Origin: Dehalococcoidia bacterium
Lineage (GTDB): Bacteria > Chloroflexota > Dehalococcoidia > Lucifugimonadales > UBA3495
Direction: 5' to 3'
Length of the DNA stretch: 64,000 bases
Assembly: GCA_963665735.1 (NCBI GenBank)
Contig: OY762444.1
Coordinates: 1,068,231-1,132,230, forward strand
Both the position numbers and the translations under genes were made by a program. Shown here piece by piece: positions 7,496 through 63,117 of this stretch (the first letter of the stretch is position 1; every line of letters starts with the position of its first letter). A model generated the notes under the pieces. It searched no databases. It saw only the letters and a program-made list of their open reading frames with translations, and had not been told where the DNA came from.

Positions 7496-7540
7496 TAGTG
7501 CATAAGTTCGTCGGGCGGACGACCCACGGGGAGGTGTAGG

Positions 7541-42738: not shown

Positions 42739-43395
42739 GTGAACGAGCCGCCGGCCTACCCCCGGACTCCCTGCTGGCCCACGTCGCCCTCCAAGCCGCG
42801 GGGAGACCGCAACACCCGGCACGCCGGGGAATTCCCCGGAGCGGACCTGACCGTCACTGAGAAGCTGGACGGCAGCAGCGTACTGATCCACGAGGGACGG
42901 GTACTCACCCGGGGAGGCGACCCCCACGCTCCCTGGCTGGCCATGGCCCGCAAGCATCACGGCTGGAAGCTCCGGGGACAACCCGGACTGTGCCTCTACG
43001 CCGAGGACATCTACGGGGTTCACAGCATCGCCTACGACCCGGTGCCCGAAGCGCGCACCCTCTACGTCTTCGCCGCCCTGGAGGACGGGCGGTTCCTGTC
43101 TTTTCCCGAAGTGGAGGAGATCGCGGAGCGGTTGGACATCCCGACGGTCCCGGTGCTGGTACGGGCCCGGTTCGACTCATTCGACTCAGTGGAAGAGTTG
43201 GAAGAATGCCTGCGGGAACACCACCGGGAACCCTCCGTCCTGGGGGGAGACCGGGAGGGGGTTGTGGTGAGGCATACCGCCGGGTTCAGCCGGGAGGAAT
43301 TCCACCGGCGGGTATTCAAGAGCGTCCGCGCCGGCCACGTCCAGACGGACGAACACTGGACCCGGAACTGGAAACCCTGCCGGATAGCAAGATGA
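42739..43395 (+). CDS. ATP-dependent RNA ligase-like nucleotidyltransferase (small stand-alone RNA_ligase family type)
   Basis: 218 aa with a GTG start. Motif I is VTEKLDGSS (KxDG). LYAEDIYG and EGVVVRH are consistent with motifs III and IV, and FKSVR with motif V. Confidence 0.75.
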   Translation: MNEPPAYPRTPCWPTSPSKPRGDRNTRHAGEFPGADLTVTEKLDGSSVLIHEGRVLTRGGDPHAPWLAMARKHHGWKLRGQPGLCLYAEDIYGVHSIAYDPVPEARTLYVFAALEDGRFLSFPEVEEIAERLDIPTVPVLVRARFDSFDSVEELEECLREHHREPSVLGGDREGVVVRHTAGFSREEFHRRVFKSVRAGHVQTDEHWTRNWKPCRIAR

Positions 43396-43779: not shown

Positions 43780-44871
43780 ATGAACCACCTGATCCAAGAC
43801 CTATCCGCCCTGGCGGACCGGATAACCGCCGCGACGGAGCGTCTTTGACCTCCCCGCCAGGGAAAACACCATCGCCCGGATGGAATCCGAAGCCGCCCGC
43901 CCCGGTTACTGGGACGACCCTTGCCAGGCCCAGGCCCGGACCAAGCAACTCGAACGCCTGAAGGAAACTGCAACCATCTGGAACAACCTGCGTTCCCAAT
44001 CCCGGGAACTCCTGGAACTGGCCCGGATGGCCCTGGAAGAAGAGGATGCTACCCTGGACTCCGAACTGGCCGCCCGGGGCGAATCCCTGGCCGCCGACCT
44101 GGAACGGGAGGAGATCAACCTGGCCCTCTCGGGTACCACGGACGACCGCCCCGCCATCCTGTCCATCCAGGCCGGGACCGGCGGCGCCGACGCCCACGAC
44201 TGGGCCGGAATGCTGCTACGGATGTACCTGCTGTGGGCCGAGGCCAATGACCGCAGCGTCGAGACCCTGGACCTCGCACCCGGGGACAGGGGAGGAATCC
44301 GAAATGCCTCTCTGGAGATCGGCGGCAGGTTCGCCCACGGGTTCCTCCGAGCCGAGCGCGGCGTCCACCGACTGGTCCGAATCTCACCCTACAGCCCGAA
44401 AGGCGCCCGCCACACCTCCTTCGCCCGGGTGGAAGTCATCCCCGCCGCGCCGGAGGAAGAGTCCGAAATCGAAATCCGATCCGAGGACCTGAAGATGGAC
44501 CTTTTCCGCTCCGGGGGCCCCGGCGGCCAGAACGTCCAGAAGGTGAACTCCGCCGTCCGTCTGACCCACCTGCCCACCGGCGTCATCGCCGTTTGCCGGA
44601 CCGAGCGCTCCCAATACCAGAACCGGGAGTACGCCCTGCGGGTTCTGCGGGCCCGCCTGGAGGAATGTCGAAGAATCCGCCAGGCAGCGGAACGGGCCGA
44701 ACTGAAGGGTGAAACGCCCCCGCCGAATGGGGACGGCAGATCCGCAGCTACTTCCTGCATCCCCGGCAAATGGTGAAAGACCACCGAACCGGGTTCAGCA
44801 GCGCCAACGCCCAGGACGTGCTGGACGGGAACATCCAGGACTTCATTCACGCGTTTCTCACCAACCAATGA
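43780..44871 (+). CDS. prfB: Peptide chain release factor 2 (programmed +1 frameshift, plus an unexpected -1 frame break near the 3' end)
   Basis: ATG at 43780 after AAAGGAGGA. Frame 1 gives MNHLIQDLSALADRITAATERL and then TGA. The +1 frame continues with DLPARENTIARMESEAARPGYWDDP...GGPGGQNVQ (GGQ motif). The canonical C-terminus EWGRQIRSYFLHPRQMVKDHRTG...DFIHAFLTNQ-stop (ending at 44871) is reached only by a further shift at the C5 run 44717-44721. Confidence 0.85.
43836..43849 (+). promoter_or_regulatory. prfB programmed +1 ribosomal frameshift site
   Basis: GGAG-CGT-CTT-TGA-C. An SD-like GGAG lies 3 nt upstream of the classic CUU UGA C slippery/stop context. Confidence 0.85.
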
Positions 44872-44927
44872 TTGAAAGGCGGTTTCGACCCCAACCCGGG
44901 ACGCCGGCAATTGAACACCGGAGAAGC

Positions 44928-45876: not shown

Positions 45877-47253
45877 ATGCTCACCATATCCACCACCCAC
45901 CAGCCCGCCACCGACCTGGGATACCTGCTGCACAAGCACCCCGACCGAGTCCAGGAGTTCCCCCTGGCCTTCGGCAAGGCCCGGGTCCACTACCCCCAGG
46001 CCTCCGAGGAAAGCTGCCAGGCCGTCCTCACCCTGGACGTCGACCCGGTGCGTCTCACCCCCAAGGGCAACCGGGACGCCCCCTCCCACCTGCTCCAGGA
46101 CTACGTCAACGACCGCCCCTACGTCGCCGCCAGCCACCTGGCCGTGGCCCTGAACAACGTCTACCGCACCGCCATGACCGGCCGCTGCGACGCCAAGCCG
46201 GAACTGGCCAACACCCCCATCCCGCTGCGAGCGGAGATAAAGTCCCTGCCGGCCCGCCGCGGGGAAGAAATACCCCGCCGCATCCTGGAACCCCTGGGAT
46301 ACCAGGTGGAGATGGAACCCCTGCCCCTGGACCCGGATTTCCCCATGTGGGGCGACGCCGGGATTCACAACCTGGTCGTGGAATCGAAGTCCCACACCCT
46401 GGCCGAGCTGCTCCGTCACCTCTACGTCCTGCTCCCCGTACTGGACAACAAGAAGCACTACTGGATCGGCAGGGACGAGATGGAGAAGCTGGAACGCCAC
46501 GGGGAGGGCTGGCTGGACCAACACCCGGAACGGGAGATGATCAGCAAACGCTACCTGGGATTCCGGGACAGTCTCACCAGGGAGTTCCTGGCCCGGCACC
46601 CCGGGGACGAAGAGACCCCCGCCGACGAAGAGACCTTGGAAGATGGAACCGTCGGCGAGAAGCGGGAATCCCTGCACCAGCTGAGAATCCGGGCCATCAT
46701 TGAACAATTGAAACGCGCCGGCGCCCACAGCGTCCTGGACCTGGGCTGCGGCGAGGGACGGCTCATCGAGGCCCTGCTGAAAGAGGACGCGTTCCGGAAA
46801 ATCACCGGCCTGGAGGTCTCCCAGGGAACCATCGGACGCGCTCACCGGAGAATCGGCAAGGAGGAACGGGTGACCCTGCTCCACGGCTCCCTGCTGTTCC
46901 CCGACCCCCGGCTGGATGGCCACGACGCCGCCGTTCTGATGGAGGTGGTCGAGCACGTGGACCCAGAGAAGCTGGACCTGGTGGAAATGAACGTATTCGG
47001 GCAGGCCAAACCCCGCGCCGTCATCGCCACCACCCCCAACCGGGAGTGGAACGCCGTCATACCCAACATGGAGACCCGGTTCCGCCACCGGGACCACCGC
47101 TTCGAGTGGGACCGGGAGGAGTTCCGGGAATGGGCCGAAGGAGTCGCCGCAAGGAACGGCTACGCGGCGGAAATCCTGCCGGTGGGCGAGGAGGACCCGG
47201 AACACGGGCCGCCGACGCAAATGGCGGTATTCACGAAAAAGGAGACCGCATGA
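45877..47253 (+). CDS. hen1: Bacterial Hen1 RNA 3'-terminal 2'-O-methyltransferase
   Basis: 458 aa. N-terminus MLTISTTHQPATDLGYLLHKHPDR is typical of bacterial Hen1. SAM motif VLDLGCGEGRLI. C-terminal HRDHRFEWDREEFREW. Confidence 0.88.
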   Translation: MLTISTTHQPATDLGYLLHKHPDRVQEFPLAFGKARVHYPQASEESCQAVLTLDVDPVRLTPKGNRDAPSHLLQDYVNDRPYVAASHLAVALNNVYRTAMTGRCDAKPELANTPIPLRAEIKSLPARRGEEIPRRILEPLGYQVEMEPLPLDPDFPMWGDAGIHNLVVESKSHTLAELLRHLYVLLPVLDNKKHYWIGRDEMEKLERHGEGWLDQHPEREMISKRYLGFRDSLTREFLARHPGDEETPADEETLEDGTVGEKRESLHQLRIRAIIEQLKRAGAHSVLDLGCGEGRLIEALLKEDAFRKITGLEVSQGTIGRAHRRIGKEERVTLLHGSLLFPDPRLDGHDAAVLMEVVEHVDPEKLDLVEMNVFGQAKPRAVIATTPNREWNAVIPNMETRFRHRDHRFEWDREEFREWAEGVAARNGYAAEILPVGEEDPEHGPPTQMAVFTKKETA

Positions 47254-47645
47254 CTCAACGGACGGAAGGCAACGCGGTGATAACACGGCACCTGAACCTG
47301 CTCCTGTCCCGGTTGGCCAAGGCCCGGTCCAACCTGATGGAATCGGCGGAGCGGTACAGCCCCAACAACGTGGAGCTTCACTGCCGGCACTTCGATCCCT
47401 GGCTCTTTTCCAAGGAGTTCGAGCAATGGGCCGAAATACACCGGAAGCCCCGGGAAGAATTCAACCGGACGAATCTCTACAACGCCCTGGCATGGGTCAG
47501 GATGAAGACCGGAATGGACACCGAGATGCCGACCCCGGGCGGAATGGCATTGGCCGCCATGTACTGCAACGACCCCACCGACCTGTACGTCGACCCCATC
47601 AGGGCATTGACCCTGGACCTATGCGAAGAATCCGGCAACCGGTAA
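47250..47645 (+). CDS. Hypothetical protein translationally coupled to hen1
   Basis: ATGA overlap with the hen1 stop. 131 aa. No motif recognised. Confidence 0.6.
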   Translation: MTQRTEGNAVITRHLNLLLSRLAKARSNLMESAERYSPNNVELHCRHFDPWLFSKEFEQWAEIHRKPREEFNRTNLYNALAWVRMKTGMDTEMPTPGGMALAAMYCNDPTDLYVDPIRALTLDLCEESGNR

Positions 47646-47667
47646 CTCTCAATCCAAAGAGAACAGA

Positions 47668-50217
47668 GTGAAAGAAAACATGGAAATACGAATCCCCGAA
47701 TTCTGCCTGGCGCTGATGATGGGACCCACCGGGGCCGGCAAGAGCCACTTCGCCCAAAAGTGGTTCAACACCACCGAGATTCTCTCCTCGGACAACTGCC
47801 GCGCCCTGGTCTCCGACGACCCCGCCAACCGGGAGTGCAGCGACGACGCCTTCGCCGTCCTCCACGCCGTCCTGGACAAGCGTCTGAAGCGCCGCCGCCT
47901 CACCCTGGTGGACGCCACCAACCTCAGGCAGGAGGACCGGAAGACCCTCCAGGAAATCGCCCGCGAACACGACTGCCAGTCGGTCATCTTCGCCATCGAC
48001 ACCCCCGTAAAAGTCTGCCTGGAACGGAACGCCGCCCGGGAGGGCAGGAAATCCCCGGAACGGGTGGTCCAGGCCCACTGCCGCCGGATGAGGATGTCCC
48101 TCCGGGACACCAAAAAGGAACGGTCCCGGGTGTACCAGCTGAAACCCCAGGAGGCCAAAGACGCCGTCATCCGGCGGGTGAAGATGCGGATCGACCTCCG
48201 GGATCAGCCCGGCCCCTTCGACCTCATCGGCGACGTCCACGGCTGCCAAGAGGAACTCGTGCAACTCCTGGACAAGCTGGGCTACCGGGACGCGGACGGA
48301 ACCTTCATCCACCCGGAGGAGCGACGCGCCGTGTTCCTGGGCGACCTGGTGGACCGGGGCCCGGCCAGCGACCAAGTCCTGGAGACCGCCATGAACATGG
48401 TGGAAGCCGGCTCCGCCCTGGCCGTCATGGGCAACCACGACGACAAGCTGGAACGCAAGCTCAAGGGCAACCCGGTGGAGGTCAGCCACGGGCTGGGACG
48501 GACCCTGGAACAGCTGGACAAGAGGGACGAAGAATTCAAAGAGAGGGTGAAGAAATTCCTGCACCGGCTGCCCGAACAGTACCTCCTGGACGAGGGACGG
48601 CTGGCGGTGGCCCACGCCGGCATCCTGGAGAAGTACCAAGGCCGGACCAGCCGACGGGTGCGGGACTTCTGCCTCTACGGGCAGACCACCGGCGAGAGCG
48701 ACGAGTACGGCCTGCCGGTGCGCCAGGACTGGGCCCGGGAATACACCGGCGAGACCCTGGTGGCCTACGGCCACGTCGCCGTGGACGAGGCCCGCTGGGT
48801 GGGCAACACCATCTGCCTGGACACCGGCTGCGTCTTCGGCGGCAGCCTCACCGCCCTGCGCTACCCCGAAAGGGAACTGGTCTCCGTGCCGGCCCGGGAG
48901 ACTTACTACGAAGGCATCAAGCCCTGGGAGAAGACGGCGGAGGAGGCCCGGGAGCGGGCGACGGAACGATTCGAGCCGGGCCACATCCCCCTGGCCGGGA
49001 TAACCGGCGACCTGAAGATAGACACCGCCACCCACGGCCCGGTGGAAGTTCCCGCCAACCGGGTCAACCACGCGTTGGAACCCATGAGCCGGTACGCGGT
49101 GGACCCCAGGTGGCTCATCTACCTGCCCCCCACCATATCTCCCACCCAGACTTCCCGGTTGCCTGGAATGATGGAACATCCCGACGAGGCCTTCCACCAG
49201 TACCGGGAAGACGGCGTGGCCAAGGTGATCTGCCAGGAGAAACACATGGGTTCCCGGGGCATCGTCATCGTGGGCCGCAGCCCGGAGGTCATCCGGGAGA
49301 AGTTCGGAGTGGATTCTCCCGCCGGGGGCGTATGCTACACCCGCACCGGACGCCGGTTTTTCCCGCCGGAGTTGGAAAAGAAATTCCTGGACCGCACCCG
49401 CCAAGCCCTGTATGCCGCCGGGCTGTGGGATGAGCTCGACACCGGTTGGATGTTGCTGGACTGCGAGATCATGCCCTGGAGCCTGAAGGCCCGGGGGCTG
49501 CTGCAGCAGACCTACGCGCCGGTGGCCGCCGCGGCGCTGAACACCCTGGAAGCCGCCCGGGAATCCCTGGAGCAGGCCCAAGCCCGGGGCATGGACGTGG
49601 AGTCCGCCCTGGAGGACAACGGGAAACGGCTGGATGCGGTGCGGGGATACCGGCAGGCCTACCGCGAGTACTGCTGGGAAACTTCCGAAGAACTTGAAGG
49701 CGTCAGGGTGGCGCCCTTCATGGCCCTGGCCGGGGAGCAGGGAGTCAACCACCGGGACCACCTCTGGCAGATGAGCGTGGGGAGCCGGCTGGCCCGCGTG
49801 GACCCCAAGCTGTTCCAGGCCACCTGCCACGTGGTTGTGGAGACGGGGAACGAGGCCCAGGAAATGGCCGCCCTGGAATGGTGGCAGGAGATCACCTGCC
49901 GGGGCGGTGAGGGAATGGTGGTCAAACCGTTGGAACTCCTGCCCCGGGGCAGCCGGGACCGGATACAGCCGGCGGTGAAGGTCCGGGGCAAGGAGTACCT
50001 GCGGCTGATCTACGGCCCCGAGTACGACCTGCCCGGCAACCTGGAGCGTATGCGGGGCCGGAACCTGCGGGCGCGGCGGGAGAACGCCGTGAAGGAGTTC
50101 GCCCTGGGACTGGAGGGAATCCGGCGGTTCACCGCTGGGGAGTCTCCCGCCCGGGTGTACCAGTGCGCCATGGGAGTGGCCGGGCTGGAATCGGAACCCG
50201 GCGACCCCCGGCTGTAG
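47668..50217 (+). CDS. pnkp: Polynucleotide kinase-phosphatase with a C-terminal ligase domain (Pnkp)
   Basis: 849 aa. Kinase P-loop GPTGAGKSHF. Metallophosphatase motifs GDVHGC, GDLVDRGP and GNHD. Ligase-type lysine motif QEKHMGSRG. Confidence 0.9.
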   Translation: MKENMEIRIPEFCLALMMGPTGAGKSHFAQKWFNTTEILSSDNCRALVSDDPANRECSDDAFAVLHAVLDKRLKRRRLTLVDATNLRQEDRKTLQEIAREHDCQSVIFAIDTPVKVCLERNAAREGRKSPERVVQAHCRRMRMSLRDTKKERSRVYQLKPQEAKDAVIRRVKMRIDLRDQPGPFDLIGDVHGCQEELVQLLDKLGYRDADGTFIHPEERRAVFLGDLVDRGPASDQVLETAMNMVEAGSALAVMGNHDDKLERKLKGNPVEVSHGLGRTLEQLDKRDEEFKERVKKFLHRLPEQYLLDEGRLAVAHAGILEKYQGRTSRRVRDFCLYGQTTGESDEYGLPVRQDWAREYTGETLVAYGHVAVDEARWVGNTICLDTGCVFGGSLTALRYPERELVSVPARETYYEGIKPWEKTAEEARERATERFEPGHIPLAGITGDLKIDTATHGPVEVPANRVNHALEPMSRYAVDPRWLIYLPPTISPTQTSRLPGMMEHPDEAFHQYREDGVAKVICQEKHMGSRGIVIVGRSPEVIREKFGVDSPAGGVCYTRTGRRFFPPELEKKFLDRTRQALYAAGLWDELDTGWMLLDCEIMPWSLKARGLLQQTYAPVAAAALNTLEAARESLEQAQARGMDVESALEDNGKRLDAVRGYRQAYREYCWETSEELEGVRVAPFMALAGEQGVNHRDHLWQMSVGSRLARVDPKLFQATCHVVVETGNEAQEMAALEWWQEITCRGGEGMVVKPLELLPRGSRDRIQPAVKVRGKEYLRLIYGPEYDLPGNLERMRGRNLRARRENAVKEFALGLEGIRRFTAGESPARVYQCAMGVAGLESEPGDPRL

Positions 50218-50242
50218 AAACAGGCCCCACGCCCCGTCCCGG

Positions 50243-50277
50243 TGGATAGTGGCTAGTGGCCAGTAATTGGTGACCCA
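50243..50277. repeat. Heptanucleotide tandem repeat, locus d
   Basis: TGGATAG TGGCTAG TGGCCAG TAATTGG TGACCCA, 26 nt after the pnkp stop. Confidence 0.6.
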
Positions 50278-50320
50278 TCCCCAACTATCCGATACCCACC
50301 ATCCACCCAGGAGGAAGGGA

Positions 50321-50698
50321 ATGACCAGCATCCACCAACTGACGAAGAATCTCCGGGACAAAACCGACGAGGAAGTTCTGGAGGGAATCGCCGACATCAT
50401 CGAAGCCGACCCCACCCGGTGGACCCAGGGCGTCAATTTCATGATGGAGGACGGAACGTGCCTCACCAACCCCAACCTGGCCCACTCCGCCTGCGCCGTG
50501 GGGTTCATCGACGCGGTATACCCCATCGAAATCCACTGGGAACGGAACTGGAACCTGGTCTCGATGATGCAGGAGAACATACCCAAAAAATACGGGACCC
50601 CCGGGACCCGGTACAACCTGACCAAGTACAACGACACCCGCCGTGACGCAGCGGAGGTCATCGCCTGGTTCCGCAGGGCCGCAGCCCAGGCCGGATGA
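50321..50698 (+). CDS. Paralogue family P member 1 (CA-x-G / YND motif family)
   Basis: Internal ATG after GGAGGAAGGG. Motifs EEVLEGIADIIEADPTRW, AHSACAVGF and TKYNDTRRDAAEVIAWFRRAA. Confidence 0.7.
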   Translation: MTSIHQLTKNLRDKTDEEVLEGIADIIEADPTRWTQGVNFMMEDGTCLTNPNLAHSACAVGFIDAVYPIEIHWERNWNLVSMMQENIPKKYGTPGTRYNLTKYNDTRRDAAEVIAWFRRAAAQAG

Positions 50699-51153
50699 CC
50701 GGCAACAGGGAGAGAACAATGGAAACGGAGAGCATATCGGGACTCACCCGGAACCTGCCCGGCAAGCCCGGCGCGGAGATACTGGCAGGAATCGCCGACA
50801 TCATCGAGTCCAACCCCCGGAGGTGGACCACCGGCAATCTTTTCAGGGAGAAGCGCGGAGCCGCCACCGACAACCCGGAACTGGCCCACCAGGCCTGCGC
50901 CGTCGGGTTCACCGACGCGGTGTACGACAACCAAATCCACGGCGATGAGAACCGGGAACTGGCCCGGCATCTCCTGAGCGCAGTTCCAACGGAATCGCCG
51001 GACCGGGTCCGGCAATACCCCTGGAAACAGGTCCGGCACCTGGTAACCCGCTACAACGATTCCCTGGAAAACGCCGGGCAGGCCGTTGAATGGTTCCGGC
51101 GAGCCGCAGAAACGGCCCGGAACCGGGAACAGGCGACCGGCAGCCGTGGATAG
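50695..51153 (+). CDS. Paralogue family P member 2
   Basis: ATGA overlap with the upstream stop. Motifs AEILAGIADIIESNPRRW, AHQACAVGF and TRYNDSLENAGQAVEWFRRAA. Confidence 0.7.
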   Translation: MTGNRERTMETESISGLTRNLPGKPGAEILAGIADIIESNPRRWTTGNLFREKRGAATDNPELAHQACAVGFTDAVYDNQIHGDENRELARHLLSAVPTESPDRVRQYPWKQVRHLVTRYNDSLENAGQAVEWFRRAAETARNREQATGSRG

Positions 51154-51182
51154 GACGAAACCCCGGGATCAGGAGGCAGACA

Positions 51183-51599
51183 ATGACCGGCAGGAACATC
51201 CGTGAACTGGCCGCTACCCTCAGGGGAAAACCCGACGCCGACGTACTGGAGGGAATCGCCGCCATCATCGAGGACGATCCCGACAGGTGGGGAAGGGGGT
51301 TCGTGTTCAAGTCCGAGGAAGGCGAGTCCACCTACGACGCGAGCCGGGCCCATTCAGCCTGCGCCGTCGGGTTCGCCGACCTGGTATACCCCCCGGACGT
51401 CTTACCGGAGGAAAACCGGGAGTTGACCGGCAGGCTGCTGGAACCCATAGCGCCGAAACAAGAAGGACGTCAGTCCCGCTACAGCGCGATCAAGTACAAC
51501 GATACCCGACGGGACGTGGCGGAGATCATCGCCTGGTTCCGAAAAGCGGCGGAAATAGCCCGGCAGGAACAAACGGAACCCCCGGATGGGACTTGGTGA
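51183..51599 (+). CDS. Paralogue family P member 3
   Basis: Motifs ADVLEGIAAIIEDDPDRW, AHSACAVGF and IKYNDTRRDVAEIIAWFRKAA. Confidence 0.7.
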   Translation: MTGRNIRELAATLRGKPDADVLEGIAAIIEDDPDRWGRGFVFKSEEGESTYDASRAHSACAVGFADLVYPPDVLPEENRELTGRLLEPIAPKQEGRQSRYSAIKYNDTRRDVAEIIAWFRKAAEIARQEQTEPPDGTW

Positions 51600-51832
51600 A
51601 GACCCCCCTGTACCACGTCTGGGCGCTGCTGGACCACGACACCCTGAAACGGCTGGCCAGCCGGCCCCACGACCCGACCCCGGCGGCGTGGACGTCGCGG
51701 TCGTCGGCCCGCAGTTGGGCCGAGAAAAGGCTGGCCCTGACCGGCTATAAGATCCTGCGCTGCAACCACCGGGACTGCGCCATCTGCCAGGCCGCCGCAG
51801 AAGCCTGGAACATCGATGTCAGTGAAAGGTAG
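51596..51832 (+). CDS. Hypothetical small protein
   Basis: GTGA overlap with the upstream stop. 78 aa. Confidence 0.45.
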   Translation: MKTPLYHVWALLDHDTLKRLASRPHDPTPAAWTSRSSARSWAEKRLALTGYKILRCNHRDCAICQAAAEAWNIDVSER

Positions 51833-51841
51833 CCGGCGACC

Positions 51842-52045
51842 GTGGAGAATGTCCGAATGCCAGCAGGAACTCACAGCAAAGCCGAATGCCCCGCCTGTGG
51901 ACGGGAGATAGCCTACAAGTCCAAGTATTCCGTCCAGATCCGAGAACACCAGCCGCCCAAGGGTAAGCCGCTCAACGAACGGGGGACCTGTCCCGGCTCT
52001 TCCCGCAAGATTTACGCGCACATGAGGAGGCGCGAGCATACTTGA
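51842..52045 (+). CDS. Small zinc-ribbon protein
   Basis: 67 aa. Contains CPACG...CPGS. Confidence 0.45.
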   Translation: MENVRMPAGTHSKAECPACGREIAYKSKYSVQIREHQPPKGKPLNERGTCPGSSRKIYAHMRRREHT

Positions 52046-52080
52046 AACGACCGCCCGGGATTGAAAGGCTTTCCGCCCAC

Positions 52081-52115
52081 CCAGGTACCAGTCACCGGCC
52101 ACCGTCCACCGAACA
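52081..52115. repeat. Heptanucleotide tandem repeat, locus e (divergent unit)
   Basis: CCAGGTA CCAGTCA CCGGCCA CCGTCCA CCGAACA, directly upstream of the 52128 gene. Confidence 0.45.
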
Positions 52116-52127
52116 CCGGAGGAGAGA

Positions 52128-52706
52128 ATGGGATCCCGCGCCCACATCGGAAAGATACACCCCGACGGCCAAGTGGAGTACGTCTACCTGGGCCACGGCT
52201 GCTACCCCGATGACGCCGGCATCATCCTGCTGGAGAACTACCGGGAAGAAGAACAAGCCGATGCCCTGATCCGGGGAGGCTCCATCGTCAACCTGGGGCC
52301 CGACGAGAAACGCACCGGACGCTACCACCTGACCCACTGGGACGACTGGGAAGATTCCGCCCCCGTCGTCATGCAGGGAGGCAGCGAGGCCTTCTTCGGA
52401 ACCCTGAACATCCCCGGCCCCGAGTGGCTCTACGCCTGGACTCCCGACGGCTGGCTGACCGCGCCGGCGGACTGCCACCCCCCGGACGGCTGGTGGAAGA
52501 ACCTGGCCGTCATGTCCCCCCAGGAGTACCAGGACTGGTTCGACCACAACCAACAGCCGGAATGGGTGGAGTGGCGGGAACGGGCCCGGGAAAAACAGCG
52601 GCCCCGGCCGTTGATCCACGTCATCACTCAGTACGTCCGGGAGAAGGCGAAACGGAAGCTCCGGAAGGAAAAAACCCAGACGGCGCTCGACGTCATCGGC
52701 TGGTGA
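52128..52706 (+). CDS. Hypothetical protein
   Basis: 192-aa ORF after GGAGGAGAG. Confidence 0.65.
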   Translation: MGSRAHIGKIHPDGQVEYVYLGHGCYPDDAGIILLENYREEEQADALIRGGSIVNLGPDEKRTGRYHLTHWDDWEDSAPVVMQGGSEAFFGTLNIPGPEWLYAWTPDGWLTAPADCHPPDGWWKNLAVMSPQEYQDWFDHNQQPEWVEWRERAREKQRPRPLIHVITQYVREKAKRKLRKEKTQTALDVIGW

Positions 52707-52733
52707 GCCCGGCACAGGAAAGGAGCAACCCGG

Positions 52734-52928
52734 ATGAAAGTAAGAGAGTTGAAAGAAGTCCTGGACGACTTCGACCCCGAAATGGAAGTCGCCGTCGGGG
52801 TCAGGGAAGGCGGCAGGGAAGTCCCCTACGGCTTCAGCGAGGATGACATCTACGAGTTGGATTTTGCCTGGGACGGCGAACGGGAACGCCTGCTGGCCAT
52901 AGCGTGCCCCGACCTCATGTCCCACTGA
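52734..52928 (+). CDS. Hypothetical small protein
   Basis: 64-aa ORF after AGGAGC. Confidence 0.5.
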   Translation: MKVRELKEVLDDFDPEMEVAVGVREGGREVPYGFSEDDIYELDFAWDGERERLLAIACPDLMSH

Positions 52929-52948
52929 CAATTCACGGAGAAAGGAAC

Positions 52949-53647
52949 ATGACCACCTACCCCAGCCTAGATGCCTACTACCGGGAGAATCCCGGGGGAA
53001 GACAAAACAGCCCCGAGGCCGACTACGGCGTCCACTGGACCATGCCCGGGGAGAGGACCCGCCAACGGGTCTCCTACGTGATGAACACCGGCGAGATCTA
53101 CGCCGCCAGTCCCAACGGACCGGTGACCGTCCTGGCGACCTTTCCCCCCGACCCCGGCGCGGGGCCCATGGATGTATGGTACAAGAACCTGGACCGCCAC
53201 CTGGACGGCTGGGCCAGCCGCTGCGCCCGGCCCGGCGGGATGAACTGGCTGATTCAAAGGCTGAACGAGAGTCCCGGAGAAATTGAAGTCTCCCACCTCT
53301 TCGGGAACGCCGGCCCCAACGGCCATGAGACGGCCCTCTGCGGAGCCAGGGACGGCCGGCAGTACCTGGCCAGGGAACTGGAGGAGAGCCGGAAGCGAAG
53401 AATATCCTGCGAACGGTGCACGGAACTGGACGCGGAGAACCATCACCAGAACTGGGAATTCGAGTACCGGGCGATCACCCGCGAGGACGATGAATTCCTG
53501 GTCTGCCGGTTCTGCGGGAAATTGGAACGGGACCACGACCCCGGCGGCTGGCTGGGAACGCCCCGCGACCCGGGAATCGCCGCCACCTGGACCTGCCGGG
53601 AGTGCGGGCTCCGGGGATACGACCCGGTCACCCTGATGCGGGTATAG
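52949..53647 (+). CDS. Hypothetical protein with CxxC pairs
   Basis: Internal ATG after GGAGAAAGG. Contains CERC...CRFCG...CRECG. Confidence 0.6.
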   Translation: MTTYPSLDAYYRENPGGRQNSPEADYGVHWTMPGERTRQRVSYVMNTGEIYAASPNGPVTVLATFPPDPGAGPMDVWYKNLDRHLDGWASRCARPGGMNWLIQRLNESPGEIEVSHLFGNAGPNGHETALCGARDGRQYLARELEESRKRRISCERCTELDAENHHQNWEFEYRAITREDDEFLVCRFCGKLERDHDPGGWLGTPRDPGIAATWTCRECGLRGYDPVTLMRV

Positions 53648-53659
53648 GAGAGAAAGCCG

Positions 53660-54529
53660 GTGAAACCCGACAAACTGACGGAAATCACAATTGAAAACTT
53701 CCGCAGCATCGACCGTCTGGAACTCCGGGACCTGGGAGACATCAACGTCGTCAACACCGGGAACGACGTCGGAAATACCCACGTCCTGGACGCCGTCCAG
53801 CTGTACGCCGGCCGGGGCAGCCCCCAGGTCATCCGGGAGATCCTGCTGCGGGACGACGAGTTCCTGAACGGAACCTACGACGGCCCCGTCCTACCGGACC
53901 GGGACGCCCTGTTCCACGACAGGGACAACGGGGCGGAAATTAGCATCTCCGGCCAGGACTGCCGGCTGGCAATACGGGTCGACGAACAGGACCTGGAACA
54001 GAACACTCTCACCGTCTCAACGCAGGGGCGGAACCGCCGGGTGAGCCTGGAGAACCCGTACGGGTTCCGGTTCCACCCGGGAGGGGAGAGGGATGCAACA
54101 ACCTGCATCCGGGTGGGACCCCGGGAGCCGGACAACGACACCCTGGTTGGACTCTACTACCCCATAGCCCTGACCGACGGGGAGGAACGGGTTGCGGAAT
54201 TCATCACCAGGGTCGCCGGGACATGGGTGGACCGTATCGGCAGCGTCGGGGACCAGGAACGGGCGCGGGTCATGGTGCGAACGCCGGGGAGCCGGACCCC
54301 CGTGCCGCTGCGCAGCCTGGGACCGGAAACGGTGCAGGCGGCCCACGCGGCGATGGCCCTGGAGAACGCCCGGGGAGGCATCCTGCTGCTGGACCAGGCC
54401 CACACGAGAATCCGACCGGAGGCCCGGGAAATAATGTGGCGGAGCATCGCCCTGGGCATCCGGGGCGAGGCGCAGGTATTTACCACCACCGACCCGGACA
54501 AGGTTCACCGGGCGCCGGCAGCAGAGTAG
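53660..54529 (+). CDS. AAA_15/ABC-ATPase-like protein with degenerate Walker A and B motifs (pseudo-ATPase)
   Basis: The N-terminus LTEITIENFRSIDRLELRDLGDINVVNTGNDVGNTHVLDAVQL follows the family pattern, but GK[ST] is replaced by GNT. The Walker B region reads ILLLDQAH (DQ instead of DE). The family's C-terminal TTHS motif reads TTTD. Confidence 0.6.
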   Translation: MKPDKLTEITIENFRSIDRLELRDLGDINVVNTGNDVGNTHVLDAVQLYAGRGSPQVIREILLRDDEFLNGTYDGPVLPDRDALFHDRDNGAEISISGQDCRLAIRVDEQDLEQNTLTVSTQGRNRRVSLENPYGFRFHPGGERDATTCIRVGPREPDNDTLVGLYYPIALTDGEERVAEFITRVAGTWVDRIGSVGDQERARVMVRTPGSRTPVPLRSLGPETVQAAHAAMALENARGGILLLDQAHTRIRPEAREIMWRSIALGIRGEAQVFTTTDPDKVHRAPAAE

Positions 54530-54566
54530 AAAAGAGCGCAGCCGTACGCGGAGAGAGGCAGGAAAG

Positions 54567-54980
54567 ATGACCCTGACCATCCTGGAGAAACGGGGGGCGA
54601 TGAACCCCGGAACGGCGGAAGGGATTCTCTCCGAAATATCCGCCGCCGTGCGCCGCAACCCCGGATCCTGGAACCGCTACTATACGTTCGTCAACCACAA
54701 GGGCAAGGTATTCACCCCCTGGGAAATCCGGTGGCCGGGCTACGCCCGCCGGAACGCCGCCAGCGCCTGCGCCCGGGGCTGGCTCCGGCTGGCCGGGGAG
54801 AAAGCCCCGGAGGAAGAGAGACGCCGGGCCGGGCAGGCCCTGGAACAAGCCATCCCGGCCGAACTCAGGAGGCAGGGAGTGGACGGCTACAACGACTCCC
54901 TGGAAAGCGCGGAAGAATTCACAGCCTGGGTGGAACGGGCCCTGGCCATACTGGAAAACGGAGGAGACAAGCAGGCATGA
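54567..54980 (+). CDS. Paralogue family P member 4
   Basis: Motifs AEGILSEISAAVRRNPGSW, ASACARGW and DGYNDSLESAEEFTAWVERA. Confidence 0.65.
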   Translation: MTLTILEKRGAMNPGTAEGILSEISAAVRRNPGSWNRYYTFVNHKGKVFTPWEIRWPGYARRNAASACARGWLRLAGEKAPEEERRRAGQALEQAIPAELRRQGVDGYNDSLESAEEFTAWVERALAILENGGDKQA

Positions 54981-55405
54981 CCACGCTGATGGAATCAATC
55001 AGGGAAATCAACGCCGGGGAATTCCCCCGGGACGCCCGGGGCATACTGGAAATGGCCGCCGATACCGTGGAAACTCATCCCGACACCTGGACCATCGGGG
55101 AGACCTTCCGCCGTTCCGACGGCAGCCCCATGGCCGCCAACCCCGCCAACGCCCCCTACGAAGAGAGTCACTTCAACGAAGCCGGTTCCGCCTGCGCCGT
55201 GGGATGGATCCAGTTCCTCGGCCACCAGGCCGGCCGGCTGGCCCGGCGCCGGGCGGACCAAGCCCTGCAACAGGCGATACCCCCTCCCTTCCAGGCCCAC
55301 GGAGTGACCGGCTACAACGACCAGCTGGAATACCCGGAACAGTTCGTGCAGTGGGCCCGGAGGACGGTCGCCATGATTGACGCCGAGGCGGAGGAGAAGG
55401 AATGA
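54977..55405 (+). CDS. Paralogue family P member 5
   Basis: ATGA overlap with the upstream stop. Motifs ARGILEMAADTVETHPDTW, GSACAVGW and TGYNDQLEYPEQFVQWARRT. Confidence 0.65.
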   Translation: MTTLMESIREINAGEFPRDARGILEMAADTVETHPDTWTIGETFRRSDGSPMAANPANAPYEESHFNEAGSACAVGWIQFLGHQAGRLARRRADQALQQAIPPPFQAHGVTGYNDQLEYPEQFVQWARRTVAMIDAEAEEKE

Positions 55406-55767
55406 AGGTTGAAGAACTGCAGCAGCTGGCCCAAGCCAACGACCGGGTGAGGGAACTGCTGGAACAAGGCTGGACCCAGGACGTCTTCGCCCGCCGGGAG
55501 GACGGAACCGCCGTCAATCCCAATAGCCCCGAGGCGGTGAGCTTCTGCATCTCCGGCGGAGTGCATCGCGCCGCCCGGGAAATCGTCCCCGAGGAGGACC
55601 TGTCCGACCTCCTCACCTGGCACCTGAAGTACATCGAGGACGCCCTGGGTTCAAGGAACCCGGTCATCTACAACGATGACCCGGAACGGACGCAGGAAGA
55701 CGTCATCGACCTGCTGGACCGGGTGGGACGGCGCATCAGGAAGGACGTGGAGACCGGCAGGAGATGA
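55402..55767 (+). CDS. Paralogue family P member 6 (divergent)
   Basis: ATGA overlap with the upstream stop. Motifs GWTQDVFAR, AVSFCISGG and VIYNDDPERTQEDVIDLLDR. Confidence 0.6.
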   Translation: MKVEELQQLAQANDRVRELLEQGWTQDVFARREDGTAVNPNSPEAVSFCISGGVHRAAREIVPEEDLSDLLTWHLKYIEDALGSRNPVIYNDDPERTQEDVIDLLDRVGRRIRKDVETGRR

Positions 55768-56126
55768 AACGGAAGAATCTCAGCGAAACCCTCGCCCGGC
55801 TGGAGAAACCCGGCAGCCCGGGCCAACTCCTGGAAAGCATGGCCCAAATCTGGGAAAATCACCCCGGCTCCTGGACCACCGGAGTCCCGGCCCGGGACCG
55901 GGACGGGAAGCAGGTTCCATCCAGCAGCGCCAGAGCCGTATCCTTCTGCGCCGAGGGCCTGGCCAAGCGTTTGGAACCGGAATGGGGAACATTCCGGTCC
56001 GCGCTGGCGGCATTGGAGAAAACCCACAACCAGGACGTGGGAGTGACCAACGACGCCCTGGCAAACCAGTACGAAGCGGCCCGGTGGGCCCGGAGCGCCG
56101 CAGCATTCCTACCCAATGGGGAATGA
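55764..56126 (+). CDS. Paralogue family P member 7 (divergent)
   Basis: ATGA overlap with the upstream stop. Motifs LLESMAQIWENHPGSW, AVSFCAEG and GVTNDALANQYEAARWARSA. Confidence 0.6.
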   Translation: MKRKNLSETLARLEKPGSPGQLLESMAQIWENHPGSWTTGVPARDRDGKQVPSSSARAVSFCAEGLAKRLEPEWGTFRSALAALEKTHNQDVGVTNDALANQYEAARWARSAAAFLPNGE

Positions 56127-56130
56127 AGAA

Positions 56131-56841
56131 ATGAAGCCGACCATCAGGGAACTGCTCCACGACGGAGAAGATCTGCCCCAAGACGTGCCCGGCATCCTCC
56201 GGGCCGTCATGGAGACGGTGCAACGGAACCCAGGGGCCTGGAACCGGGACAACTTCTTCCAGGACGCCCGGGGCCTGGCCCTGGAGCTGGCTGACAAAGA
56301 TGCCTGGGCCGAAGCCGCCAGCGGCTGCGCCATGGGCTGGCTGAAACTGGCTGCGCTGAGGAACCCGGACATCCTTCAACCGGTCAACCAGGCGCTCCTG
56401 AACGCCATCCCCGACGAATTCACGCCGCGGTCCATCATCGCCTACAACGACTCGCTGGAGCGGCCGGAACAGTTCGTGGAGTGGGTGCGGCGGGCCTGCT
56501 ATGAGCAGCAGCCCTCCTGCCATCACGCCGGGTGGACCTGTTCGTTGGGGCACCGGAACGAGACCTACCTGTTGATGGAACGGGAAAGTAAGGAGATAAC
56601 CCTGATGGGCGGCTCTGCCTGGGACTTCTGCAACGTCTGCGACGAGCGGCCCGAGCCTTCCGAGGTAGCCCGGATGCGGCGGGAGATCTTCCGCCGGTGG
56701 GGCCAGTTGGGAATAATCGAGCCCGGGGAACAGGTCAGGCTGGAAGAGGAATACGGAAGCGCGGAGTCGGTCCACAGCTGGGAGGAGAGAATGGCATGGG
56801 CGCTGGAGAAAATAACCAATGAAAGGATGGGTGAAGAATGA
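56131..56841 (+). CDS. Paralogue family P member 8 with a C-terminal extension
   Basis: Motifs VPGILRAVMETVQRNPGAW, ASGCAMGW and IAYNDSLERPEQFVEWVRRA, followed by about 100 additional residues. An alternative start exists at 56116. Confidence 0.65.
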   Translation: MKPTIRELLHDGEDLPQDVPGILRAVMETVQRNPGAWNRDNFFQDARGLALELADKDAWAEAASGCAMGWLKLAALRNPDILQPVNQALLNAIPDEFTPRSIIAYNDSLERPEQFVEWVRRACYEQQPSCHHAGWTCSLGHRNETYLLMERESKEITLMGGSAWDFCNVCDERPEPSEVARMRREIFRRWGQLGIIEPGEQVRLEEEYGSAESVHSWEERMAWALEKITNERMGEE

Positions 56842-57152
56842 CCCGGGAAACAGTCTACAACCCCGACCATCCCGTCTGCCCCGGAAACGACGCCGCCGCC
56901 GTAGTGGCGGAAATCCTGACCATCATCGAAGTTGAAGCCGACGAGGCCGGTGAGGAGACTCCCGAACTGGATGAGGAGACCCTGCGCCGGAGGATGCCGG
57001 AACTGGAACGCCTGGTCATGGAGCAGCTGACCGAAAACCCCATGCCCGTCTGCAAGCACCTGGAACACGCCGTGGGCGCCGCCGCCTGGGACGTCTGGCG
57101 AAAGCTGATCCAAGAGGAAAAAGACGCGCTGCGGGAAAAGGAGAAAGAATGA
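56838..57152 (+). CDS. Hypothetical acidic protein
   Basis: ATGA overlap with the upstream stop. 104 aa. Confidence 0.55.
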   Translation: MTRETVYNPDHPVCPGNDAAAVVAEILTIIEVEADEAGEETPELDEETLRRRMPELERLVMEQLTENPMPVCKHLEHAVGAAAWDVWRKLIQEEKDALREKEKE

Positions 57153-57760
57153 GCCAGGAGAAGGAAACCCACGAGTCCTACGGGACCATCTCCTTCACCC
57201 GGGTGAACGGCGCCGGCGATATACCCCTGTTCGGTTCCTCCATCAACCACCAGAACGTCATCATGCTTGAGGTGATGACCGCCGAGCGGACCCGCAACCT
57301 GAGCCGGGACTGGATTCACGGCAACAAGGTGATACTACAGGCCGTCATGTCCCCGGCCCAGTTCGCCGAGGCCATCACCTCCCTGGGGCAGGGGGGCGGG
57401 ACTCCCATCACCCTGGAATTCGTCGCCGGGGACGAGCAACGCCGCCGGCCGCCGCCGGCGCCCCGGGTCAGGGAGCAGTTCGATGCCGAGGTTCACGAGA
57501 GCATGGCCCACAGCATCGAAATCGTGGACGAGCTGATCGAGAAGACCAAGGGCACGGTGCGCCGGCGTCTGGAAATCCTGAGGGGAAGGCTGGAGAGCAA
57601 CCTGCCCTTCGTACAGGAGCAGTTCGCCCGGCAGATGGACCGGACGGTGACCGAGGCCAAGGCCGAGATGGAGGCCTACGCCCTGGCCCGTCACCCGCAG
57701 ATCGCCGTACCCGCCATGACCCGGCAGCCGGAGGCCCTGCCCCCGGCGGAAGAGGACTGA
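57149..57760 (+). CDS. Hypothetical protein
   Basis: ATGA overlap with the upstream stop. 203 aa. Contains YGTISFTRVNG...LFGSSINHQNVIMLEV. Confidence 0.65.
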   Translation: MSQEKETHESYGTISFTRVNGAGDIPLFGSSINHQNVIMLEVMTAERTRNLSRDWIHGNKVILQAVMSPAQFAEAITSLGQGGGTPITLEFVAGDEQRRRPPPAPRVREQFDAEVHESMAHSIEIVDELIEKTKGTVRRRLEILRGRLESNLPFVQEQFARQMDRTVTEAKAEMEAYALARHPQIAVPAMTRQPEALPPAEED

Positions 57761-57793
57761 ACCCCAACCAAAGGGAAAAGGAAGAAAAAAACG

Positions 57794-58195
57794 ATGAACG
57801 ACAACCAGCAACAGATGAAAGCCGTCATTGAATTCGCCCTCAGGGACTGGGACGAGGAACACTGGATCAAGGGACGCACCGCCCGGGCAGTACACCGGGA
57901 GCCCGACGGGCGGACAACCGCCGGCATCCCCGACGACCCAACCAGCCCGGAAGCGGGGTACTTCTCCGTGGTCGGCCGCATCAGCTGGGCCGCCAGCCGC
58001 CTGGACCACCGGGGCCACGTCATGGCCAACGCGGTCGATGAACTCCTGGCCCCGCAACTGGACCCGGAGTTCTTTCCCGACATGACTCCGGGGCAACGGG
58101 TGCAGAAGCACAACGACCTGCCCGGAACCACATTCGAGCAGATTACCGGGATGCTGCAGCTGGCCCAAGACGAACTGGAGGGTTCCATTTCCTGA
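57794..58195 (+). CDS. Paralogue family P member 9 (most divergent)
   Basis: HWIKGRTARA, then YFSVVGRISWA (the Cys is lost), then QKHNDLPGTTFEQITGMLQLA. Confidence 0.5.
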   Translation: MNDNQQQMKAVIEFALRDWDEEHWIKGRTARAVHREPDGRTTAGIPDDPTSPEAGYFSVVGRISWAASRLDHRGHVMANAVDELLAPQLDPEFFPDMTPGQRVQKHNDLPGTTFEQITGMLQLAQDELEGSIS

Positions 58196-58299
58196 ACCAC
58201 GCTTTCACCATGAACCGGGGGCAGCTGTCGTCAAAGCCGGCCGGACAACGGACGGTGTAATCTTCCCGCAACCATCCGCAGAACGGAACCGGCGGCAGC

Positions 58300-60477: not shown

Positions 60478-61548
60478 ATGACAGACACATTCCTATTGGG
60501 CGCAGGCTTCTCCAAAGCAGTGTGTAGCGCCATGCCAACCATGAAAGAGTTGTACGACCTCCTAGGCGCCTCCTTGAACAACCCAGACGGCCCAACCAGG
60601 GAAGCTTACGAGTACGCCTCCGGCAATACGGAGACGCTGCTCTCCTATTACGCAATTCCCAGTCCCCAAGATGACCGAATTCAACTGTTAAAGAAGAAAC
60701 AAGTTACGGCTTACTTGGAAAACAAGATAGGACAGATAATAAGTGACAAGGAGGAGGAGGGGGCAAAGCTGGGATTGAACCCTCTGGCGGGACGGCTATT
60801 GTCAAAGTGGCACGATGAGAAAACCCATGTGCTAACTACCAATTACGACACTCTCATCGAGAGAATAGCAGACCAAGGAATATACTCAGCACTAGGGGGC
60901 AAGAAGGAACAGTTACATTACCAGATTATTTATCCCATACCCATAAGCACTGCCCAATCCAGATACGGAACAGCTGTACTAGGCCCAACGCGCCACGAAA
61001 CTTTCACAATATACAAACTGCACGGATCAACCACATGGTTCAAGTCAGACACGGAGGTTACCTTCGACCCCATCTATGGAGTCTCATACGACAGCACTAC
61101 TAACGTCGAAGAGAACCAACTAGTCGTCGATAAAAGAAGATTTATAGTACCTCCCGTCTATGATAAATCATCTCTGCTCAGCCACGACACCATAAGGAGT
61201 TTATGGCGATTGGCGAGAGATACCGCAATACGACCCGCTAACCGAATATACGTTATCGGCTATTCACTGCCCGAAACGGACACAGCCATGCACACCCTCC
61301 TGTGGGAAGGAAGTCAATCTAACGGCGGGGAGAAAGAAATCTACGTTGTGGATCTAAACCCTGAAACCGCCAAGAGATACAGACAGACCCTAGGGAAATA
61401 CTACCAAGTCAATGAAAAATACACTGGTGGAGACGACCCCTTCGGCAGATTCATAGAAGAGTACGTGGGAGAGGAATACGAAGAAATCGAAGCAACTGAG
61501 CAAAACAAAAAATCAGGAGCAATGCTGGTTCCTTTACCCAAGGCATAG
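60478..61548 (+). CDS. SIR2-like (SIR2_2 family) protein
   Basis: 356 aa. Motifs FLLGAGFSKAV...MPTMKEL, YKLHGSTTWF and YVIGYSLPETD. Visibly lower GC than flanking DNA. Confidence 0.8.
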   Translation: MTDTFLLGAGFSKAVCSAMPTMKELYDLLGASLNNPDGPTREAYEYASGNTETLLSYYAIPSPQDDRIQLLKKKQVTAYLENKIGQIISDKEEEGAKLGLNPLAGRLLSKWHDEKTHVLTTNYDTLIERIADQGIYSALGGKKEQLHYQIIYPIPISTAQSRYGTAVLGPTRHETFTIYKLHGSTTWFKSDTEVTFDPIYGVSYDSTTNVEENQLVVDKRRFIVPPVYDKSSLLSHDTIRSLWRLARDTAIRPANRIYVIGYSLPETDTAMHTLLWEGSQSNGGEKEIYVVDLNPETAKRYRQTLGKYYQVNEKYTGGDDPFGRFIEEYVGEEYEEIEATEQNKKSGAMLVPLPKA

Positions 61549-61854: not shown

Positions 61855-62668
61855 GACAGTCAACTTGGAACAGGAAAGAGACACCATGCAACCAGTTCAT
61901 GCGGACTACAAGTACCGGCGTTTTCCGAAAGTGGCAGATACCAATTACCTGCAACTGCCGGGAGACCTGGCCGAATTCCTGAAAGAGGCGCGACTCAGGG
62001 AGAAAAGGCGACTTGAACAGGAAGAACGGGAGCAGATGCTCCTGAGACTGGCCAGAGCCGAGCGATGCCTCCGGCCAACGGAATACCAGGATTGGAGAGA
62101 GTACCGGGTCACCGCAGACGGAACCGCTCTACGCCGGAACGACGCCGGGATGAGATGCCTCGAATCCGGGAACCTCACCAGGGCCTTCAGAAATTTCAGG
62201 GAAGCCATTGACCGGGACCCGGAACTGGGATTGGCCCACAACAACATCGGGTTGCTCTACCTGGAAATTGGAGAACATGAGAAAGCATTGGAGCACTTCG
62301 ACGAAGCCATCCTATTGGATAAAGGGTTGGACGTTGCTTACGGCAACCGGGGACTGGTTCTTATCGAACTGGGCGAGTACGAGGACGCCTACGGCAACCT
62401 TGAAGAAGCCCTGTCCATGGACCCGGAAGACCCAATGCACCACAACAACTTGGGGGTGCTTTTCCTGGAAATAGGGGAACCGGAAATCGCCATGACCCTT
62501 TTCAACCAGGCCATAGAAATCGAGCCCGACAGACCGCTTTACCACGCCAATCTGGGCATCGCGTACAAAGAAATGGACGACTGGGAAACTGCCAACCGGG
62601 AATTCGAAGAAGCTGCGGAACTCAGTAAAAGGGAGTTCGCCGAAAGCATGGACCGGATAGCCGCATGA
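61853..62668 (+). CDS. TPR repeat protein
   Basis: 271 aa with at least five TPR-like 34-aa units (for example AHNNIGLLYLEIGEHEKALEHFDEAILLD). Alternative start at 61886. Confidence 0.8.
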   Translation: MTVNLEQERDTMQPVHADYKYRRFPKVADTNYLQLPGDLAEFLKEARLREKRRLEQEEREQMLLRLARAERCLRPTEYQDWREYRVTADGTALRRNDAGMRCLESGNLTRAFRNFREAIDRDPELGLAHNNIGLLYLEIGEHEKALEHFDEAILLDKGLDVAYGNRGLVLIELGEYEDAYGNLEEALSMDPEDPMHHNNLGVLFLEIGEPEIAMTLFNQAIEIEPDRPLYHANLGIAYKEMDDWETANREFEEAAELSKREFAESMDRIAA

Positions 62669-63117
62669 CGGACAGCCAAGACGGCAGAATCAAAATCGTC
62701 ATAGATACCAATGTCCTGGTACCCATCCTGACATACAAATCACCCAACGACAACTGGCTAGTCAAATCCTGGAAGTCATACAGCGTAATCCCCCTGATTT
62801 GCGAGGAAACCTCAGAAGAACTCCGGAGGAAGCTGATATGGGCATCTCCCACGACAAAAGATTACCAAGCAATACTGTTCGCCGAGAGAGGCCTCAACGA
62901 CTACGCTCAATGGTGTGAGACGATCAGGGTGGAAGACGAACCTGCTAACCCGCAGTGCCGGGACAAAACCGACCAGATATTCATTGACCTGGCCTACGCC
63001 GGAAACGCCGCCTACCTGGTCACCAGGGACGGGAAACTCCTGGCAATGGATTCCCAAACCCCCTTCCGCATCCTCACCGACGCCGACTTCCGGCGGATAA
63101 TCGCCCCGCTAGTTTAA
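62665..63117 (+). CDS. PIN-domain protein (PIN_3-like putative toxin)
   Basis: ATGA overlap with the TPR gene stop. Motifs KIVIDTNVLVPIL, RDKTDQIFIDLA and YLVTRDGKLL. Confidence 0.8.
   Translation: MTDSQDGRIKIVIDTNVLVPILTYKSPNDNWLVKSWKSYSVIPLICEETSEELRRKLIWASPTTKDYQAILFAERGLNDYAQWCETIRVEDEPANPQCRDKTDQIFIDLAYAGNAAYLVTRDGKLLAMDSQTPFRILTDADFRRIIAPLV

Follow-up and report, generated by a model that had tools for sequence, protein, structure and literature searches.

A small orphan gene at a variable junction between hen1 and pnkp in a Dehalococcoidia bacterium

Results

Hen1, Pnkp and the gene between them

The stretch of DNA analysed here, referred to as the window, comprises 64,000 nucleotides (nt) of contig OY762444.1 (positions 1,068,231 to 1,132,230 of the forward strand) in the genome assembly GCA_963665735.1 of a Dehalococcoidia bacterium of the phylum Chloroflexota. 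It houses the genes for the RNA-repair enzymes Hen1 and Pnkp and, between them, an open reading frame (ORF) of 131 codons, ORF131, which is the subject of this study. Pnkp-Hen1 has been described as a strictly two-gene cassette. The features of the locus are as follows, in coordinates of the window (aa, amino acids):

45877..47253, + strand: hen1, 458 aa, matching TIGR04074 and the Pfam families Hen1_L and methyltransferase
47239..47244, + strand: Shine-Dalgarno-like AAGGAG, read from the sequence, in the last hen1 codons and 5 nt before the ORF131 ATG
47250..47645, + strand: ORF131, 131 codons, its ATG overlapping the hen1 stop; publicly annotated as P0001 (131 aa)
47646..47679, + strand: spacer from the ORF131 stop to the pnkp ATG, without a GGAG-type ribosome-binding site and containing only ...agagtgaaagaaaacATG
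47680..50217, + strand: pnkp, from its probable ATG start, matching TIGR04075 and the AAA_33, Metallophos and PNKP_ligase domains

Both enzymes are recognised at full length and with all their domains. Hen1 scores 597.8 bits against TIGR04074 bacter_Hen1 (cut-off 340); its residues 1-240 match Hen1_L (PF12623) at E 1.5e-101, and the methyltransferase domains are also matched, so that by these profile matches an N-terminal domain that activates the ligase of Pnkp is joined to a C-terminal Mn-dependent 2'-O-methyltransferase. All the alignment columns that are invariant in 41 Hen1 sequences are kept, including DLGCG, E356/E359/H360 and H404/D406/H407. Pnkp scores 1118.7 bits against TIGR04075 bacter_Pnkp (cut-off 750) and combines in a single chain an AAA_33 kinase (PF13671), a Metallophos domain (PF00149) and, at residues 469-844, a PNKP_ligase domain (PF16542, E 4.8e-152); its translation shows the motifs GPTGAGKS, GDVHGC, GDLVDRGP, GNHD and KHMGS, that is, the P-loop, the phosphatase motifs and the ligase lysine. 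With the Hen1 residues and the Pnkp motifs intact, the cassette looks functional. At least 8000 proteins match Hen1 at E 1e-10 or better. A second Hen1 (P0004), 82% identical to that of the window, apparently belongs to the same genome; among the best 120 Pnkp matches there was no second Pnkp of apparently the same genome, and no paralogue of ORF131 was found.

Two candidate starts are present for pnkp, a GTG at 47668, lying 22 nt past the ORF131 stop, and the ATG at 47680, lying 34 nt past it. The ATG is probably the true start: in the GTG form the alignment to the family model begins at residue 5, and the public protein, P0123, has 845 aa. The arrangement set out in an earlier note on this DNA, with hen1, an ATGA overlap at 47250-47253, a 131-aa ORF and pnkp 22 nt further on, is thus correct in its coordinates, the 22 nt applying to the GTG start.

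Order and spacing of hen1 and pnkp in the wider family

In the characterised cassettes of Clostridium thermocellum and Anabaena variabilis the two enzymes are encoded by adjacent, co-oriented ORFs, and the proteins form a (Pnkp)2(Hen1)2 complex (PMC3675462). The earlier note had placed pnkp first in such systems and had treated the hen1-first order as special to this locus. A survey of 160 loci encoding a Hen1 45-53% identical to that of the window, drawn in equal parts (80 each) from species-representative genomes and metagenomes, does not bear this out: hen1 lies upstream of pnkp and in the same orientation in every one of the 153 loci that hold both genes, exactly as in the window. The window departs from this norm in that hen1 and pnkp are not adjacent but are split by ORF131, with 426 nt separating the hen1 stop from the pnkp ATG. 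Across the 153 loci the median distance from hen1 stop to pnkp start is -1 nt; the genes overlap in 89, and the distance exceeds 150 nt in only five (about 3%), so that a gene-bearing gap of 426 nt is an unusual feature.

Two of these five outliers carry accessory RNA-repair genes at the junction. In L017 it holds a gene for an RlaP nucleotidyltransferase (PF10127), the start of which overlaps the hen1 stop, and in L099 it holds genes for an RNA ligase Rnl (PF09414) and an HD/AAA_33 kinase protein, together with two RlaP genes (PF10127). RlaP is known from inside RNA-repair operons, as for example in rtcB-rlaP-rtcA (PMC12776372), and an extra gene between two core repair genes is what these loci and the window have in common. 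The RlaP-type accessories, however, are widespread enzymes, and ORF131 is a singleton that matches none of their families.

ORF131 as a coding sequence

ORF131 is very probably a genuine protein-coding gene, beyond a chance open frame, as judged from its frame-specific codon score, its guanine-plus-cytosine (GC) content of 0.82 at the third codon position, and the AAGGAG 5 nt upstream. A codon-usage log-likelihood score, for which five genes of the window with Pfam support served as the training set, gave +0.415 bits per codon for ORF131 in its own frame and negative values in the remaining five frames, and neighbouring genes scored 0.17-0.60 bits per codon. GC contents at codon positions 1/2/3 are 0.55/0.42/0.82 in ORF131 and 0.71/0.41/0.86 in hen1; overall they are 59.8% for ORF131, 65.9% for hen1 and 66.8% for pnkp, and in its overall GC and low first-position GC ORF131 resembles the neighbouring small genes, not the two enzymes. 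The layout of GGAG plus spacer ahead of ORF131 is that found ahead of hen1, and ahead of both the junction genes and pnkp of the relatives described below. The predicted product is soluble, with a computed isoelectric point of 6.1. A single-sequence AlphaFold model of it was all-helical and unreliable, with a predicted local distance difference test score (pLDDT) of 46.9, and a Foldseek search of the Protein Data Bank (PDB) with this model returned nothing below E 3.

ORF131 is, as far as the collections searched can tell, an orphan singleton, known from one genome only. A word-indexed search of 5.8 billion clustered proteins returned the query alone, and an exhaustive phmmer search of 1.84 billion representatives returned the query and one repeat protein, matched 11 times by ORF131 residues 31-50 and judged spurious. 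Homologues were likewise absent from metagenome and viral contig DNA (pattern and tblastn scans), from plasmids and phages (tblastn), and from PDB sequences, where the best match had E 1.4. Searches of Pfam, NCBIfam, PHROGs and PADLOC assigned no family; in Pfam nothing passed E 0.019, and the sole weak match, to DUF7607, lay below the cut-off of that family. Assignment to the RlaP nucleotidyltransferases was rejected for want of a match to PF10127, and assignment as a ligase, in the manner of an Rnl-type third subunit, for want of any ligase or other enzyme signature. Within the window tblastn at E 10 found no paralogue, and neither the 160 surveyed loci nor the nine nearest-clade loci described below hold a homologue. 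Since a homologue is absent from every collection searched, ORF131 is not a general component of the Hen1-Pnkp system.

A variable gene slot in the nearest clade

The closest relatives of the locus were picked by their Pnkp (53-63% identical to that of the window) from long-read metagenome contigs, and in a neighbour-joining tree of Pnkp they fall into one clade with the window, which is sister to L161 and L162. Their hen1-pnkp junctions are occupied as follows:

L161: genes of 82, 138 and 90 aa, each overlapping the next end to start
L162: a gene of 136 aa, its product 59% identical to the 138-aa protein of L161, and an uncalled homologue of the 82-aa gene
L164: a gene of 117 aa, with an ATGA overlap
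L165: a gene of 93 aa
L169: a gene of 102 aa
L163 and L166: empty (87 nt)
L167: empty (130 nt)

One to three small genes are thus found at the junction in the window and in five of the eight other clade loci checked, and most of them begin at an ATGA that ends hen1. A ninth relative, L168, encodes a same-clade Pnkp of 875 aa (5001-7628) with no hen1 within 5 kb on either side, an exception to the rule that the two genes always share an operon.

Counting the singleton ORF131, the junction genes represent three or more families that are unrelated to one another. Family A comprises the 138-aa protein of L161 and the 136-aa protein of L162; family B comprises the proteins of 117, 93 and 102 aa from L164, L165 and L169, which are 54-64% identical to one another. 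The ratio of non-synonymous to synonymous substitution rates (dN/dS) lies at 0.29-0.46 in the slot genes of families A and B and at 0.31-0.36 in the flanking hen1 and pnkp, which argues that these slot genes are functional and are kept as proteins. ORF131 shares with them its position, a similar size (theirs being 82-138 aa) and, in most cases, an ATGA or near overlap with hen1, and their products are likewise mildly acidic, soluble and devoid of known domains, no match having been found for them in Pfam or PADLOC. Families A and B, on the other hand, have several members each, and ORF131 shows no detectable similarity to either: in BLASTP, hhalign and hidden Markov model searches it proved unrelated to both families, to the remaining slot proteins and to DUF6197.

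Family B has paralogues in the same elements. Its domain of about 90 aa (LAEQA..VYD..GE.AML.FI) forms the N-terminus of proteins of about 200 aa encoded near hen1-pnkp in every locus of the sub-clade:

L164, 8594-9265: family B-domain protein, directly after pnkp
L165, 12551-13156: family B-domain protein
L169, 1520-2161: family B-domain protein
L163, 3284-3895: family B-domain protein, upstream of hen1 at an empty slot
L166, 4834-5445: family B-domain protein, upstream of hen1 at an empty slot

This domain may therefore be a recurrent companion of the cassette. An all-against-all tblastx comparison of the loci found only hen1 and pnkp in common and was otherwise noisy. What is new here is a slot of changing gene content where hen1 meets pnkp in one clade, in an otherwise known system.

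Probable coupling of translation across the junction

The ATG of ORF131 shares bases with the TGA stop of hen1, and no terminator-like site was found on the + strand between 45.5 and 52.5 kb. Together with the codon signature and the AAGGAG, the overlap supports the view that ORF131 is a coding gene inside the hen1-pnkp transcription unit and, as the earlier note proposed, translationally coupled to hen1. At the other end of the gene the situation differs from that in the relatives: a GGAG lies 5-9 nt before the pnkp ATG in all eight relatives examined, and none is present in the window (47640-47680), so that pnkp has here lost a recognisable ribosome-binding site.

These features suggest the following scheme. 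One transcript would span hen1, ORF131 and pnkp; ribosomes ending hen1 would reinitiate on ORF131 by way of the ATGA overlap and the AAGGAG in the hen1 tail; and ribosomes ending ORF131 would be the likely supply for pnkp, 34 nt downstream. ORF131 would then be co-produced with both enzymes, translation of pnkp may depend on ribosomes arriving from ORF131, and translation of ORF131 may influence the ratio of Hen1 to Pnkp, or the output of Pnkp.

Surroundings of the cassette

The window is a mosaic of variable genes, likely in a mobile or defence-island setting, and an origin of the region in a mobile element is suspected. The features that bear on this are:

193-7427: PLD plus SNF2 helicase, with an adjoining Eco57I-like methylase
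17333-18967: Ro60/TROVE protein with a vWA domain (E 1.3e-61)
20062-20784: Fic protein
26653-29154: TIR-STAND NTPase, in a low-GC block (about 50%)
42739-43395, + strand: stand-alone RNA ligase (PF09414, E 4.5e-21), 2.5 kb upstream of hen1 and on the same strand
43781-44900: broken prfB (release factor 2), between the RNA ligase gene and hen1
50267..51599, + strand: a tandem of three small co-oriented paralogues, immediately downstream of pnkp, of which two match DUF6197 (PF19698; E 2e-9 and 2.4e-5) and the middle one (50695-51153) has no Pfam match
60478-61548: SIR2-like protein, in a low-GC block (about 50%)
62665-63117: PIN protein

The helicase with its adjoining methylase and the Fic, TIR-STAND, SIR2-like and PIN genes are of defence type, and radical SAM and Mrr_N proteins are also encoded. 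The low-GC blocks lie at 6-14, 26-30 and 60-62 kb. For numerous small co-oriented genes no match of any kind was obtained, and the loci of the relatives are of the same character. Among the loci fetched, the only homologue of the RNA ligase of the window is in L099 (11423-12163), where it lies directly between hen1 and pnkp. In the prfB copy the site of the programmed +1 frameshift, at about 43844-43850, is of the canonical form CTT TGA C. The frame is broken a second time near 44700, and the conserved C-terminus (WGRQIRSYFLHPRQMVKDHRTG...) runs on in another frame, which suggests either a pseudogene or an error in the sequence.

The three small genes after pnkp possibly share its transcription unit, which would be a matter of context and does not imply that they belong to the repair system. 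With 54567-54980, 55402-55767 and 57794-58195 they make up a group of up to seven co-oriented small paralogues, four of which score above the DUF6197 cut-off, 54567-54980 giving only a weak match. Mention of DUF6197 in the literature is limited to a Gordonia phage genome note (PMC10586128). A prophage origin is not established: no structural or integrase match was obtained, and 50218-58200 has no blastn match to phages. No relative of the Hen1 of the window was found in the viral contig collection, and a scan of the window for Rfam families at their gathering thresholds, including Y RNA, and for tRNA gave no match.

Discussion

It is probable that ORF131 is an orphan gene occupying a cargo slot of variable content, which separates hen1 from pnkp and is typical of one sub-clade whose cassettes lie in variable islands of small unannotated genes. 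Recurrent occupancy, the purifying selection seen in slot genes of the relatives and the presence of RNA-repair genes at the same junction elsewhere argue for a link of the slot with the repair system or with the conflict in which it takes part. The protein could conceivably be an accessory, fast-turnover factor in that conflict, modulating a repair enzyme or acting on an RNA-damaging toxin, a suggestion that we make weakly. Several points tell against this reading as a whole. The clade survey is small, with nine loci, all of them metagenome assemblies; the fold model of ORF131 is poor and the fold search that used it was empty; and no homologue attests to conservation of the ORF. The argument from association is also thin, as most of the slot genes are as uncharacterised as ORF131 itself, and insertions may just be tolerated in the slot with no functional link behind them.

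The proposal of the earlier note, that ORF131 is made in stoichiometric amounts as a third subunit, adaptor or specificity factor, binding Hen1 and/or Pnkp and altering what the complex repairs, draws on the ATGA coupling to hen1 and the position inside the operon, to which can now be added the positional analogues in the nearest relatives and the accessory repair genes at the L017 and L099 junctions. A three-protein Hen1 system is moreover known, the Pnkp1-Rnl-Hen1 heterohexamer, in which the third protein is a ligase split from a shortened Pnkp1 and hen1 is distant from the other two genes (PMC4411300); there a third polypeptide is needed for Hen1-based repair, whereas the Pnkp of the window keeps its ligase domain. 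The characterised two-protein complex, for its part, repairs RNA without a third protein (PMC3675462). ORF131 has no homologue in any of the 162 other hen1 loci examined or anywhere else, and for the second Hen1 of what is apparently the same genome no partner resembling ORF131 is recorded. The junctions of the close relatives L163, L166 and L167 are empty, and the slot proteins are mutually unrelated across lineages, which would not be expected of a partner of a conserved surface. A third-subunit role is on this balance distinctly unlikely, and with conservation lacking, three close relatives empty at the junction and the slot families unrelated, we lean weakly against counting ORF131 among the structural subunits of the (Pnkp)2(Hen1)2 core. 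The idea of a general third component thus falls, the surveyed loci holding no homologue, while the unrelated small genes at the junction of five of the eight nearest relatives leave room for a lineage-specific accessory role.

That ORF131 is instead a passenger, be it an ORF of young or de novo origin or an insertion of the moron kind, with a product unrelated to RNA repair and at most a role of its translation as a ribosome relay from hen1 to pnkp, is favoured by its strict orphan status, by GC and first-position GC below those of the flanking enzymes, by the loss of a GGAG site ahead of pnkp, and by its place within 30 kb full of co-oriented small genes, mostly without family match. The family B slot genes, being copies of a domain present elsewhere in the same elements, likewise point to a slot filled from the local gene pool. 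The morons of phages and plasmids, and variable operon slots, resemble it as small orphans of atypical composition between conserved genes, their content differing among relatives, but no capsid, terminase, portal or integrase match was obtained among the window proteins tested. The codon usage of ORF131, however, equals that of its Pfam-matched neighbours, an open frame of 131 codons with a perfect ribosome-binding site has been maintained, the slot genes of the relatives are under purifying selection, and the junction insertions of distant loci are RNA-repair genes; we think a passenger unlikely, though a pure passenger is a serious rival.

As to the origin of the gene, a 23-nt stretch of ORF131 (47413..47435, + strand, encoding KEFEQWAE) is identical at 20 of 23 bases, and in the same codon phase, to hen1 47117-47139 (EEFREWAE), raising the idea that ORF131 arose at least partly by tandem duplication of the hen1 3' end and then diverged. 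The match covers the conserved EF..WAE motif of Hen1 and was reached by one of 300 codon shuffles. When residues 39-62 of ORF131 were aligned locally with Hen1 residues 396-421, 21 of 500 shuffles did as well, which was counted as not significant, and a gapped DNA alignment with the whole of hen1 was equalled by 47 of 400. A profile of the Hen1 C-terminus aligns over only 10 residues at about 1 bit, hhalign gives a probability of 5%, and the rest of ORF131 shows no likeness to hen1. Such a duplication is very improbable, and the 23-nt match is a weak lead on origin, not a finding.

To return to the variable cargo slot, a stronger form of that reading would make the junction a diversifying locus, encoding fast-evolving, lineage-specific partners that tune Hen1-Pnkp, for instance in the choice of RNA repaired and methylated, or that neutralise a cognate RNA-cutting toxin: three-part repair with one swappable part. 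We hold this to be a long shot. A clade in which small genes change at the junction, where distant loci carry RNA-repair accessories, nevertheless offers a concrete handle on the biology of Pnkp-Hen1, and the slot proteins, which would be produced along with the enzymes, lend themselves to inexpensive tests of binding, of an effect on repair specificity and of toxin neutralisation. Should the slot proteins prove to be passengers, the locus would still show that the tight coupling of hen1 to pnkp can be interrupted and led by way of a further ORF, which matters for the annotation and expression of such operons.

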